Origin: Escherichia phage vB_EcoM_LNA2 | Sequence record: MZ311865.1 | Reading direction: 5' to 3' (one strand) | DNA: 64,000 bases | In this document: one piece after another, positions 49,662 to 54,178 of the stretch | Numbering within the stretch: the stretch's first letter is position 1 | How the letters are laid out: each line of letters starts with the position of its first letter | The notes under the pieces: model-generated | Told to the model about the DNA's origin: nothing | Databases searched by the model: none | The model's input: the letters and a program-made list of their open reading frames with translations, nothing else | Made by a program: the position numbers and the translations under genes

Positions 49662-49853
49662 AATTAAATTACATTAAAATATGTTAAAGCCAACCATGTT
49701 CCAGTGAACGAACATGCAATGTAAAAACCCGTATCACAAATTGTTCTTAGTACAATAAGAAGTGCAATTTTCATAAGTACCTCAACACAATTGAAAATAT
49801 TATACAAATCATTGGGATACTAAGCAACCATATTCCTATCCACATTTTAGAGC

Positions 49854-50117
49854 TCATATCTCAACTTCCGCGAGTTCCATATATCCTTTGTTGATAACCT
49901 CTTTAAGGTCTTTAGAAAGAATAACACTAAAATGGTCGTTCATATGTCCATTAACTAAACGAGTTATTTCTGCTTCAGATGACATATAAGGCACGTCTGA
50001 GTCCCAATGAGATAGACCCAAATGGGTATAAATCATCCCTTCGTCATCTGCAGTGTTGTACATTGAAACAAATTCGCCTGTTACTTTATGTTTTGCGTAG
50101 AAAAATTTAAATTTCAT
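49854..50117 (-). CDS. hypothetical protein
   Basis: 87-aa ORF. Confidence 0.4.
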   Translation of the reverse strand: MKFKFFYAKHKVTGEFVSMYNTADDEGMIYTHLGLSHWDSDVPYMSSEAEITRLVNGHMNDHFSVILSKDLKEVINKGYMELAEVEI

Positions 50118-50143
50118 GATGTTATCCTCTTTTAGATAGGACT

Positions 50144-50173
50144 ACTATATCATAGTCCTACTTAGTTGTAAAC
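50144..50173 (-). promoter_or_regulatory. early-type promoter cassette with hairpin around -10
   Basis: Minus-strand GTTTAC-18nt-TATAGT; stem TAGGACT/AGTCCTA encloses the -10. Confidence 0.5.
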
Positions 50174-50185
50174 ACTTTTATGAAA

Positions 50186-50806
50186 TTAAAGATGAAGATA
50201 CCACCCGTTGTAGTTGCTCTTGCGGACGATTTTCTTTAGGTCTTCATGGTCTCCCACGAACTTTATAGAATAAGAGAAGACGTCAGGTGAGGTTTCTTTG
50301 ACATCTAATATAATAATGCAATCTGCGACTCGATGGTTCAAGAAGGGCCCTATATTGATTCCATTACCACCCGGATAATCACCACTGTATCCTGTGGTAA
50401 CTGAAATCCATTTAGAATCTATCTGGTGTGTCTTGACTTCTACACGAATTCCACAATACTTGGGATGGGCTAACACGTCCCACGCATACGTGTACGGGTC
50501 TTCTACGTCTTCAATACCTTTATTAACATATCCGTCTAGCCAATTTGCTACCACATACTCTGCAAAGACCGCAACCTTACAACGTCGAACTACATCTTCT
50601 TTGTTTTGGTCAGGATTTTGGCTCAGGGAATACCGAGCAGTGTCAGCAATCTTCACCTTCATTTCACTAGTCAAAAACTCATTCGACAGGATAAATGTCG
50701 GAAGATTCTTCAGTCTCAACAGTCCCAAGTTCGTCTTTACCATAGATACCTCTGATGTGTAGTTCGCCAAAATAAATGCGGTCACCTTCTTCAAGATATT
50801 CAGCAT
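50186..50806 (-). CDS. hypothetical protein at the T4 denB position (start uncertain)
   Basis: 206-aa track ORF; internal Met (MVKTNLG) would give 185 aa, the T4 DenB length, but identity is not verified. Confidence 0.4.
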   Translation of the reverse strand: MLNILKKVTAFILANYTSEVSMVKTNLGLLRLKNLPTFILSNEFLTSEMKVKIADTARYSLSQNPDQNKEDVVRRCKVAVFAEYVVANWLDGYVNKGIEDVEDPYTYAWDVLAHPKYCGIRVEVKTHQIDSKWISVTTGYSGDYPGGNGINIGPFLNHRVADCIIILDVKETSPDVFSYSIKFVGDHEDLKKIVRKSNYNGWYLHL

Positions 50807-50966
50807 CTACCGGTGGGATTTCAATAACAACTTCGTCGCATTCTAACCAGCCGTAGTGTGCATCACCAGGATGTTTTACCAATTTAGCACAATAAACTGA
50901 TTTACACTTATGATGACCACGAAGATTAGCAATTTTGGATTCTGATACGTCAAATGGATGAATCAT
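50679..50966 (-). CDS. hypothetical protein, overlaps the next ORF
   Basis: 95-aa ORF directly after the rIIB terminator; its 3' end overlaps the 5' end of ORF 50186..50806 in a different frame. Confidence 0.35.
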   Translation of the reverse strand: MIHPFDVSESKIANLRGHHKCKSVYCAKLVKHPGDAHYGWLECDEVVIEIPPVDAEYLEEGDRIYFGELHIRGIYGKDELGTVETEESSDIYPVE

Positions 50967-50986
50967 AATTACCCCTAAAGAAAAAA

Positions 50987-51002
50987 GGGGACCGAAGTCC
51001 CC
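50987..51002 (-). terminator. UUCG-tetraloop hairpin after rIIB
   Basis: GGGGAC-cgaa-GTCCCC on plus strand. Confidence 0.55.
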
Positions 51003-51007
51003 AATTA

Positions 51008-51955
51008 TTATTCTGCAAATAATTCAGTAACGTCTGAAATTACTTCATAACGACAAGTACGCATCTTAGCATCGCCATAGTCAACTGGGATAGATACAAC
51101 ATCACGTGGATGAACTTTAACCTTCACAACTTTATCTGAGCTTGAACCAAAGTGGCGAATATAAGATTTAGCACAAACGTGGAGACCGCGAGAACAGGTT
51201 TGAGTATCATCGTCGTTAACTCGAGTACGAGGCATTGAAACAACTTTACCTGGGGAGTTATCAAACGTACCACTATAGCAGTCTAAATAGTCCTTACGAA
51301 CTACTTTCCACGCATAGAAATGACCATCTTCAGTGATTTCAATATCGTTTGCAACCAAGAAGTCGAATAAACGTTGTACAGCTTTTTCGCTTGGGTTTTC
51401 TAACAGGTTTTCAAGGAATGGCAGATAGAATTTAAAGTCTTCACCTTTTTCCATGGAATCAATAATACGGTTAACCAGCCCTGAACGAATCTCTATACCT
51501 TGATAAAATAAACTACCACCTTCAATAACAACATTACCGTCAACAAACTTACTAATAGCTTTCTTGATGTTAATAAGTTCGACAGCTTTACTAAGGTTTC
51601 CTGCGACCAAATTAGCTTTAATTTCTTCAAAATTTGCATGACTTGATGGAGTCGCATTGTATGCTACGCGTCCTTCAATAATTGAAATAAATTTAGATGA
51701 CGCGTTCCATATGATTTCAGGACGATGTCCGCCGATAATAGGTTCATCATTTTCTGGAACTTCTTCGATTACATAAGAGGCATCGTTTGCTTCAGGGACA
51801 ACGCCTTCTGCTTTAAAATTCTTAACAATCTTACGAAGAGTATCTGTTGAAATGTCGAAGTAATCGGCAATTTCTTTACGAGTCCATTTGCCTGATTCAA
51901 CCAGGCCATAAGCTTCTAACTGTTCTTCTTGGGACAAGCATTTGATATTGTACAT
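51008..51955 (-). CDS. rIIB: rIIB membrane-associated lysis-inhibition protein
   Basis: 315 aa (T4 rIIB 312 aa); N-terminus MYNIKCL and conserved C-terminal half (FLVANDIEITEDG.FYAWKVVR...CSRGLHVC.KSYIRHFGSS). Confidence 0.9.
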   Translation of the reverse strand: MYNIKCLSQEEQLEAYGLVESGKWTRKEIADYFDISTDTLRKIVKNFKAEGVVPEANDASYVIEEVPENDEPIIGGHRPEIIWNASSKFISIIEGRVAYNATPSSHANFEEIKANLVAGNLSKAVELINIKKAISKFVDGNVVIEGGSLFYQGIEIRSGLVNRIIDSMEKGEDFKFYLPFLENLLENPSEKAVQRLFDFLVANDIEITEDGHFYAWKVVRKDYLDCYSGTFDNSPGKVVSMPRTRVNDDDTQTCSRGLHVCAKSYIRHFGSSSDKVVKVKVHPRDVVSIPVDYGDAKMRTCRYEVISDVTELFAE

Positions 51956-51964
51956 AATGTTTCC

Positions 51965-54178
51965 TTATTTGGCCGCTTCCACGGCCTTCATGAATTTAAC
52001 GATTTGAGCGACCTGTTCTTTAGAAAGAGTACCACGTCGTCCCATGTATTCTGACACAATATGATAATTGGTTTCAAATTCAATAACCATTTTATCATCA
52101 TTATCGTAAGCATTATCTTTAAGCTTATCGAAAATTTTAGCACACAATTCTAACTTCTTATTCAGATCTCTGTTAGTAGCACCCGAGAATCGATTCCAAC
52201 CCCAACGATTATTTACTGTTGAAAGTTTTGCAAAATCTTTACTGATTTCTTTGTTCTTAGAGCTAAAATACTTACTAAGGAAGTTAAGCTCTTCATTACG
52301 AGTAATATGATTCAAATAAGGCTGTGCTCTACGACTTGGTGATACATACTCATCATAATCCACTTTATCAATTAGCGTAATATAGTCGTTAATTGATTTT
52401 TCGAACAAGCATTCTACTTCACCAAGTTTACGAACTTTCTTAGCAATCTGTGGACGAACTACAGTGAACTCTTTAATACCTGACAAATCAGCAATACGGG
52501 TCAAGAAATTGGAGTCATAGTTCAACCAACCTTTATCTGCGTCAAGACATTCAGCATTAGAACGATTACGAACTATAGCATAACCTTGGATTTCATCAGC
52601 TTCACTCGCTGGAATAAAGAGATCTTCTAATACCCAAACATCGTTTTCATTCTTAAAGAACCGATGAGCACTTGGAGATTTAGGACGAGGCTCATTAGTT
52701 CGTTTCCTGACTTCAATCCATGGTTTAACGATTTGTAAAAGCTCTGAAGTCTTGTACATGTTAATGCTATCGCCATCAAAGATAACTTTAAGGCGTTCCA
52801 GAAGTTTCATTGCATCTTCGTCTGTAGGGTCAACGAATAGTACGCTTTTACCAAAACCGCGTGGAACTTTACCGGTTAATTTAACCTCGTCTTTAGACAT
52901 TTCAATTGAATTAAGAGCTCGCATTAATGGAACGCGTCCCTTAACGTCGTCAATAACAATTTCAACGTTTTTAATGTTAATGCCAATCAGACTGTTAATT
53001 GAAATGGTTGCCGTTGAGCTACCGCTTTCACGAATACGACGAAGACGAGGGGATTCAACGATATCGTATACGACACCAAGATTACACCACTCAGGCCCCA
53101 TTTTAAAACGTTTGTACAACTCAGAATAAGTTAGTTGTTCTTTAGAGTATTTCAGTGATTCAATATTAGACCCGGCCTTTTCCATGTATTTACGAGCGGT
53201 ATAGCCAAGAGAATCAATTTCACGGAACACATGACGTGGGTATTTACAATCAATCCATTTCTTAGAATCTTCAGCAAATAATTTTGCATCGATTTCTGCA
53301 ACACGTTTATGGATATTTGCTACTGTACGTTTATCAAATGACAATGCTTCACGAGACGGGGCTACATCTAGTTCACCCATAGGGAATTTAATATAAGCTG
53401 TAGTGCATCGCGTCATCATCCATGTTTGTTCTTTAATAACACTTCCGATTGGATATACAATACCACCATAAACAGCCATGATATTACCACGTTCACCCCA
53501 TGGAGCTTCCTTGGCCAAATATACATCGTCAAATTCTGGGAAGTATTTGATATCTTTAACACCGCGAACTTCTGCAATATCACCTAGAGGACGCATAACA
53601 TATGCAATTTCAGATGCGAACTTTTCAAAATCTTCTGGGTTAACCGGTACAACTACTTCTACACCCGTACGGTCATCAGGGCCCATCTTATCTACAAAGG
53701 TTGGCTTAATCTGTGGACCACTGTCATCTTGGTAGATTACGTAACCACGAACTTCACCATTGTGATAAGACGTAAGGTTAAACGTATCAGTATATGCTAG
53801 CGGAGCTTTAGAGCCGAGTCCGAATCCACCAATGAAATCGTTACTCGATGTTTTAGTTGAAGCAAAATATGAGTTATAGATTCCTGGCTCTTCGTCATTA
53901 CCTCGAATGGTGAAATCACTCATACCAGGACCAAAGTCTCGAACTACAAAACGTGGGTCTAAACGACCTGGAGCCTGAACAATAAACTTATCAGTGCAAC
54001 CGTTAAGAATTTGTCCATCGATACAGTTTGTAATTAATTCACGTACACAAGCCAATTCTTTGTTTGTATAAAGGTCATTAGACAAAATCTTATAAACTTT
54101 GCTATTGCCTTGAATAGTAAATGCTGTGCTCTTACCGCCTGAACCAATAATCGTTTCTTTAGCCGTTTCAATAATCAT
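51965..54178 (-). CDS. rIIA: rIIA protein
   Basis: 737 aa (T4 rIIA 725 aa); adjacent to rIIB. Confidence 0.85.
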   Translation of the reverse strand: MIIETAKETIIGSGGKSTAFTIQGNSKVYKILSNDLYTNKELACVRELITNCIDGQILNGCTDKFIVQAPGRLDPRFVVRDFGPGMSDFTIRGNDEEPGIYNSYFASTKTSSNDFIGGFGLGSKAPLAYTDTFNLTSYHNGEVRGYVIYQDDSGPQIKPTFVDKMGPDDRTGVEVVVPVNPEDFEKFASEIAYVMRPLGDIAEVRGVKDIKYFPEFDDVYLAKEAPWGERGNIMAVYGGIVYPIGSVIKEQTWMMTRCTTAYIKFPMGELDVAPSREALSFDKRTVANIHKRVAEIDAKLFAEDSKKWIDCKYPRHVFREIDSLGYTARKYMEKAGSNIESLKYSKEQLTYSELYKRFKMGPEWCNLGVVYDIVESPRLRRIRESGSSTATISINSLIGINIKNVEIVIDDVKGRVPLMRALNSIEMSKDEVKLTGKVPRGFGKSVLFVDPTDEDAMKLLERLKVIFDGDSINMYKTSELLQIVKPWIEVRKRTNEPRPKSPSAHRFFKNENDVWVLEDLFIPASEADEIQGYAIVRNRSNAECLDADKGWLNYDSNFLTRIADLSGIKEFTVVRPQIAKKVRKLGEVECLFEKSINDYITLIDKVDYDEYVSPSRRAQPYLNHITRNEELNFLSKYFSSKNKEISKDFAKLSTVNNRWGWNRFSGATNRDLNKKLELCAKIFDKLKDNAYDNDDKMVIEFETNYHIVSEYMGRRGTLSKEQVAQIVKFMKAVEAAK

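Follow-up and report, generated by a model that had tools for sequence, protein, structure and literature searches.

In T4, overlaps between genes are mostly of the 1-4-nt, ATGA type, with a few nested genes such as 30.3'. Out-of-frame overlaps in compact phage genomes generally place both genes on the same strand, with the ribosome-binding site of the downstream gene inside the upstream coding sequence. The gene pair analyzed here, a DUF7418 gene followed by denB, has the same layout. Unlike the usual 1-4-nt overlaps, however, its members share 65-80 nt, the arrangement is conserved across genera, and the only part of the upstream protein that is involved is a tail predicted to be disordered.

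The downstream gene of the pair encodes, by homology, endonuclease IV, a family characterized by dC-specific cleavage of single-stranded DNA. Current interest in DenB stems from its role as the trigger of retron Eco2 and from generalized transduction. The 185-aa T4 protein, expressed from the ATG that corresponds to Met22 of the ORF described below, is an active 21.1-kDa enzyme (PMC1635256), and DenB is toxic to E. coli (PMC1635256; PMC12916289). Ser176 is reported to be important for T4 DenB (PMC2175332), and Gly71 and Gly180 are sites of mutants that escape retron Eco2 (PMC12916289).

We studied a 64,000-nt stretch of Escherichia phage vB_EcoM_LNA2 (MZ311865.1), which we call the window; all positions are those of the window. 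The closest described loci resemble it to different degrees. RB69 and other Mosigvirus phages (APCEc01, JS09, ST0, HX01) are about 95-98% identical in nucleotide sequence and have the same ORFs and the same 65-nt overlap. They differ from the window only in annotation, in which denB begins at Met49 (158 aa) and the overlap is hidden. Salmonella phage CGG4-1, Erwinia phage COW86c and Cronobacter phage Pet-CM3-4 have the same gene pair in the same frame relation, with an overlap of 68 nt from the T4-type ATG and a DUF7418 stop one codon later than in the window; their DUF7418 proteins are only 35-75% identical. T4 shares with the window the neighbourhood rIIA-rIIB ... ndd-ac-52 and a denB gene (NP_049887) that is 72% identical over its full length, with the same start position and with Ser176, Gly71 and Gly180 conserved. 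It differs in having lost the body of the DUF7418 gene and in carrying denB.1, which is absent from the window phage; T4 denB still works. Our literature search returned no paper that mentions DUF7418, RB69ORF272c or the DUF7418/denB overlap.

Results

The window phage is an RB69-like relative of T4 in the genus Mosigvirus, and positions 49800-52000 are 97-98% identical to phages PCM001, AV117, APCEc01, JS09 and ST0, among others. The minus strand carries, in order, rIIA (51965..54178), rIIB (51008..51955), a 95-aa ORF, a 206-aa ORF, small ORFs, ndd, ac, 52.1 and gene 52. The upstream neighbour of the pair, an ORF of 315 aa, is annotated as RIIB in the 97-98% identical relatives. In the ORF list both ORFs of interest begin with ATG: the 95-aa ORF spans 50679..50966, and the 206-aa ORF spans 50186..50806, with an internal Met22 at 50743 that leaves 185 aa. 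Their overlap is 128 nt long if the longer ORF is taken to begin at its first ATG and 65 nt if it begins at Met22. The frames differ: relative to the 95-aa ORF, denB is shifted to +1 (50966-50743 = 223 = 3x74+1). An earlier note on this DNA had reported this geometry, and its coordinates, lengths, 65-128-nt overlap and differing frames are exact according to the ORF list, as is its placement of both minus-strand ORFs directly downstream of rIIB. Its statement that T4 has denB at this very position passes over denB.1 (64 aa) and an 82-nt gap, which intervene between rIIB and denB in T4. The note left the choice between two genuinely overlapping genes, with the start site yet to be settled, and a single gene that is frameshift-disrupted or recoded.

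Between the rIIB stop and the ribosome-binding site of the 95-aa ORF, a promoter/terminator scan identified a G+C-rich hairpin with a UUCG loop (GGGGACTTCGGTCCCC; minus strand, 50987..51002), followed by a T-run that extends to about 50977. The hairpin is of the strong C(UUCG)G type and could be a terminator or an mRNA-stabilizing element. T4 and T6 have a similar hairpin (GGGCTTCGGCCC) at the equivalent position, after denB.1. Because the space between the hairpin and the start of the 95-aa ORF is too short for a promoter, the 95-aa ORF and denB are probably transcribed by read-through from upstream. At the other end of the pair, just past the denB stop, there is a sigma-70-like promoter match on the minus strand (50144-50172; TTTACA, 17-nt spacer, TG-TATAGT; 10/12), which overlaps an inverted repeat with an 8-bp stem (50137-50160). 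The match lies upstream of an 87-aa ORF (49854-50117) that corresponds to phrog_2390 and RB69ORF270c and that is present in T6 and missing from T4.

Strong independent homologues of each overlapping ORF rule out a chance ORF in either case. The 95-aa ORF (minus strand, 50679..50966) is the DUF7418 gene, RB69ORF272c. Its product passes the Pfam gathering threshold across the entire DUF7418 domain (PF24193; E 1.2e-37; score 128.8 bits, cutoff 27; residues 1-94 aligned to positions 1-99 of the 101-position profile) and also matches phrog_2237 (E 1.1e-35); tblastn matches to it occur in 700 phage records. The N-terminus, MI.PFNVS, is conserved, and a Shine-Dalgarno-like AGGGG, read from the sequence at 50972..50976 on the minus strand, stands 5 nt before the ATG. 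AlphaFold2 models the protein with a mean pLDDT of 78; residues 1-76 are beta-rich, with pLDDT of 75-90. The acidic tail, residues 77-95, is modelled at low confidence (pLDDT below 50) and is predicted to be disordered; the C-terminal peptide is DELGTVETEESSDIYPVE. We also considered T4 denB.1 (64 aa) as a homologue of the 95-aa ORF and rejected it, as BLASTP gave zero alignment between the two.

Among 1.84 billion representative proteins, the DUF7418 family forms only 11 clusters, and nine of these are 84-133 aa long. The two others (P0037, 1246 aa; P0040, 568 aa) repeat only a short motif. Each matches DUF7418 residues ~20-44 (beginning CKSVYCAKLVKHPGDAHYGW) five times, which suggests that this segment resembles a repeat motif of larger proteins. 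In phage FL18 (H105), only DUF7418 residues 29-95 are matched, under features named rIIA and endonuclease, and this pattern suggests a deletion or rearrangement.

The product of the 206-aa ORF is, by homology, DenB, endonuclease IV. phrog_1360 matches it with an E value of 9.8e-89 (residues 22-205 on profile positions 1-188 of 203), and the 72% identity to T4 DenB extends over all 185 residues. DenB homologues carry PF26887 in precomputed tables, and tblastn finds DenB matches in 1090 phage records. G71, S176 and G180 are invariant in an alignment of 12 genera, with the window protein among the aligned sequences. D89, E102 and K104 are likewise invariant across this alignment and may constitute a PD-(D/E)XK-like triad. 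Foldseek searches with the DenB fold returned only non-significant matches, with type II restriction enzymes on top. About 140-150 Mosigvirus records contain intact copies of both ORFs at 95% identity or more.

Assigning the denB start determines the extent of the overlap. The T4-type ATG (50743-50741) gives a DenB of 185 aa (minus strand, 50186..50743) that begins MVKTNLGLLR. The alignment with T4 DenB (185 aa) that the earlier note had proposed as a check points to this ATG: Met22 of the 206-aa ORF is where the residue-for-residue alignment with T4 DenB begins (MVKTNLGLLRLKNLPTFILSNEFLTSE vs MQKTNPGLQRLFQIPTFTLSNSDLTCE). A Shine-Dalgarno sequence, AGAGG (minus strand, 50749..50753), precedes ATG 50743 with a 5-nt spacer and is embedded in the DUF7418 codons for I-R-G, within the conserved motif ELHIRGIYG. 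The RNA around this ATG has less predicted structure than shuffled controls (z +1.73), and this fits an accessible initiation site; the denB start region gave no Rfam match, and no structured RNA was found there. In an AlphaFold2 model of the 185-aa protein (pTM 0.80), residues 1-30 have pLDDT of 90-96, and the N-terminal region forms a helix (6-12), a strand (17-20) and a second helix (26-42) that contains Met28.

The start is also conserved. Among the 58 full loci of the comparison described below, 52 keep the T4-type denB ATG at the aligned position, and in the remaining six (PS2-type and phiR1-RT-type) the denB ATG is 1-4 codons away. Most lineages have a purine-rich, SD-like sequence at the same site, mostly GAGG, AAGG, GGTG or GGAG; it is only weak in a few, such as L052. 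On the strength of the T4 alignment, the Shine-Dalgarno sequence, the conservation of the ATG, the predicted N-terminal structure and the predicted RNA accessibility, we infer that ATG 50743 is the denB start used in vivo. The true overlap is therefore 50679-50743, or 65 nt.

The annotations of RB69, T6 and most RefSeq Mosigvirus genomes imply a different start, at Met49 of the 206-aa ORF (Met28 of DenB; minus strand, 50660..50662). DenB would then have 158 aa and the overlap would not be real; a weaker version of the proposal is that reinitiation at this ATG yields an extra, truncated isoform. ATG 50662 does lie 16 nt past the DUF7418 stop, and termination-reinitiation is compatible with such spacing. 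However, a good Shine-Dalgarno sequence is absent before it, and the methionine is present in only four of the 12 aligned genera and missing from the other eight. The 27 codons ahead of it are conserved as protein, both across genera and with T4 DenB, to which 17 of the 27 residues are identical. Because Met28 falls inside the confidently predicted helix 26-42, a start at this position would delete structured parts of DenB, namely a helix and a strand. The active T4 enzyme of the biochemical work is, moreover, the 185-aa form. We consider initiation at Met49, in either version, very unlikely, and the 158-aa DenB of RB69 and RefSeq is most likely an annotation artefact that avoids the overlap.

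The first ATG of the 206-aa ORF (minus strand, 50804..50806) would instead give a DenB of 206 aa and an overlap of 128 nt. It opens the longest ORF, and extended DenB forms of 197-200 aa are annotated in some records of other genera. Against such a start, a Shine-Dalgarno sequence is absent, residues 1-21 (MLNILKKVTAF...) are unmatched by the DenB profile, and T4 and T6 have an in-frame stop directly before the conserved denB ATG, with upstream in-frame stops variably placed elsewhere. We give initiation at 50806 almost no credence: this ATG is a by-product of a frame that is open within the DUF7418 gene, and not a start.

With denB starting at 50743, we compared the overlap across T4-like phages. 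At least 10 T4-like lineages are represented among the 59 loci compared, which come from the window, T4, 11 phages in GenBank that belong to different genera, and 46 contigs of IMG/VR; 58 loci are full, and one is cut at a contig end. The IMG/VR loci were found by an alignment-based scan, while a single-protein query gave just three close relatives. Fifty loci bear a DUF7418 homologue at E < 1e-10. The window and 47 of the 50 DUF7418-bearing loci have DUF7418 flanked by rIIB (or denB.1) and denB; in the remaining three, of the PS2 type (L011, L059 and L060), further genes stand between DUF7418 and denB. In the Serratia PS2-type arrangement, the two are about 460-480 nt apart.

Where DUF7418 adjoins denB, its stop lies 65, 68, 80, 53 or 17 nt inside denB, and the frame relation is constant. 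The overlap is 65 nt in Mosigvirus and 68 nt in T6-type Tequatrovirus, Dhakavirus, Jiaodavirus, Gelderlandvirus, Karamvirus and Erwinia phage COW86c. Other lineages have overlaps of 80 nt (including the phiR1-RT type), 53 nt (including the kv_tblp2 type) or 17 nt (including the VR25 type). In two loci (L045 and L046), the DUF7418 stop falls 4 nt before the denB ATG and the overlap is absent. DUF7418 homologues with a 17-nt or zero overlap end shortly past the ...HIRG(I/V)(Y/V)G motif. Several lineages have denB without a DUF7418 gene, and T4 is without the DUF7418 gene body. In the window, the dual-coding segment (minus strand, 50679..50743) encodes DUF7418 residues 75-95 and the stop in one frame and DenB residues 1-22 in the other, denB being in +1. 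This arrangement is ancestral to much of Tevenvirinae.

T4 itself retains a trace of the upstream gene. An unannotated mini-ORF of 37 codons, MIYMNIGDSDIKESLNAENESWVTETISDSDIYPIEQ followed by a stop (L003, NC_000866, reverse strand, rc 1198-1311), spans the 82-nt 'gap' between denB.1 and denB together with the first 68 nt of denB. It corresponds to the T6-type DUF7418 gene from which about 216 nt have been deleted internally and in frame, and it retains the DUF7418 Shine-Dalgarno sequence, the ATG and the tail that overlaps denB. Other T4-type contigs (L020-L022) carry another deletion, this one out of frame, which leaves a 40-codon remnant that ends 73 nt inside denB.

Two overlapping ORFs on the same strand, with the second in the +1 frame, have the geometry expected of a single gene that was disrupted by a frameshift (as a pseudogene or by sequencing error) or that is read through a programmed +1 frameshift into a DUF7418-DenB fusion. 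Only this geometry speaks for such a gene. The two-ORF arrangement recurs in hundreds of independent genomes, and the ORFs encode unrelated protein families whose genes stand apart in PS2-type phages; DenB stands alone in T4, and denB retains its own conserved Shine-Dalgarno sequence and ATG. The single uninterrupted ORF that the earlier note suggested seeking was found neither in related genomes nor among protein database entries. No DUF7418-DenB fusion occurs across the 59 loci or the 11 DUF7418 clusters, and a homologue of fusion length is absent among the 1.84 billion representative proteins. A conserved slippery or shift-prone site was not found in the overlap, and the DUF7418 stop and its context vary by genus (GAA-TGA, CAA-TGA, ATC-TGA, GAA-TAA, CAG-TGA).

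Given independent homologues for both ORFs and conserved start sites, the notion of a frameshift-disrupted or recoded gene has to be abandoned, and we judge a single gene, disrupted or frameshifted, to be exceedingly unlikely. The earlier note's other option, two genuinely overlapping genes, is borne out by the same homologues and by the conserved denB ATG. Judged from their sequences, the DUF7418 gene and denB are two real, independent genes in an ordinary conserved overlap.

We looked for signs of selection on the overlapped DUF7418 tail. The fraction of synonymous differences in the overlap compared with the rest of denB was 0.40 vs 0.47 in phages that have the overlap, and in the controls it was 0.42 vs 0.50; this measure did not separate the two groups. 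Some phages that have no DUF7418 gene next to denB also keep the alternative frame open to +68, and 10-30% of synonymous recodings leave this frame open. Because of this recoding probability (P 0.1-0.3), an open alternative frame alone is no evidence of selection. Other measures point in a different direction in these sequences, whose phylogenetic relatedness inflates P-values and overstates significance: diversity at denB position 3 was 0.41 in the overlap vs 0.52 in the rest of the gene in the overlap group and 0.62 vs 0.58 in controls. Wobble bases of denB are 47% G and 16% T in the overlap vs 16% G and 34% T in the rest of the gene, a skew that is stronger than in controls. In every phage whose overlap is 65 or 68 nt long, denB codon 15 ends in G, and in the DUF7418 frame this G accounts for the Asp of a conserved motif, D[IF]YP. 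The evidence is only moderate, and the DUF7418 tail may be under independent constraint.

Discussion

We consider it very likely that the DUF7418 gene and denB are separately initiated, independent genes that share 65 nt in the window phage, and that the 158-aa DenB of RB69 and RefSeq is an artefact. In such an arrangement, the DUF7418 gene (50966->50679) would be translated from its own Shine-Dalgarno sequence and ATG, and denB would be translated from ATG 50743 by way of a GAGG Shine-Dalgarno sequence within the last conserved DUF7418 motif. The denB Shine-Dalgarno sequence and ATG are written into the DUF7418 codons for I-R-G-I-Y-G, the conserved C-terminal core motif of the upstream protein. 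Ribosomes on DUF7418 would thus pass over the site where denB translation begins and reach their stop codon 65 nt into denB, which they would read in the -1 frame. As the denB start site is already predicted to be unstructured, unmasking by upstream ribosomes would be unneeded. Passing ribosomes may mildly interfere with, or tune, initiation of a toxic nuclease, and upstream translation across the denB ribosome-binding site would modulate, and probably dampen, DenB synthesis. The shared nucleotides would encode the structured N-terminus of DenB in one frame and the disordered, acidic tail of DUF7418 in the other.

One could envision a larger role for the overlap, in which the D[IF]YP tail is a selected short linear motif, the nested start couples or throttles DenB synthesis, and DUF7418 is perhaps a partner or modulator of DenB. 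This idea draws on the G-rich, T-poor wobble positions of denB in the overlap, the invariant G that specifies the Asp, and the persistence of the mini-ORF in T4. We regard a functional overlap of this kind as unlikely.

The same DUF7418/denB arrangement is annotated in at least five ways across public records. In RB69, APCEc01, JS09, AV117 and T6, denB is annotated from the internal Met (158 aa) and the overlap is absent. PKO111 has a 175-aa form, while CGG4-1 and COW86c have the 185-aa form with the 68-nt overlap annotated. VR25 and kv_tblp2 have forms of 197-200 aa. In IME08 (L005 1201-1500) the DUF7418 gene is omitted, and denB is extended across it as a 200-aa form. Gene-caller lengths of DenB homologues in a large protein collection vary from 158 to 200 aa. 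More than 100 deposited genomes contain the overlap almost unchanged, and the annotation of a few relatives already shows it; new here are the correction of the denB start site for Mosigvirus and T6-type phages and the conservation of the overlap across genera.

These annotations have practical consequences. RB69-type and T6-type denB genes are 27 codons too short in RefSeq, and in other genera denB is annotated too long or the adjacent gene is missed. Cloning or modelling DenB from short-start records would mean that a truncated enzyme is used. The DUF7418/denB overlap reveals no new mechanism. The locus is a clean and deeply conserved out-of-frame overlap of 65-80 nt, in which a tail predicted to be disordered is overprinted on a structured N-terminus.
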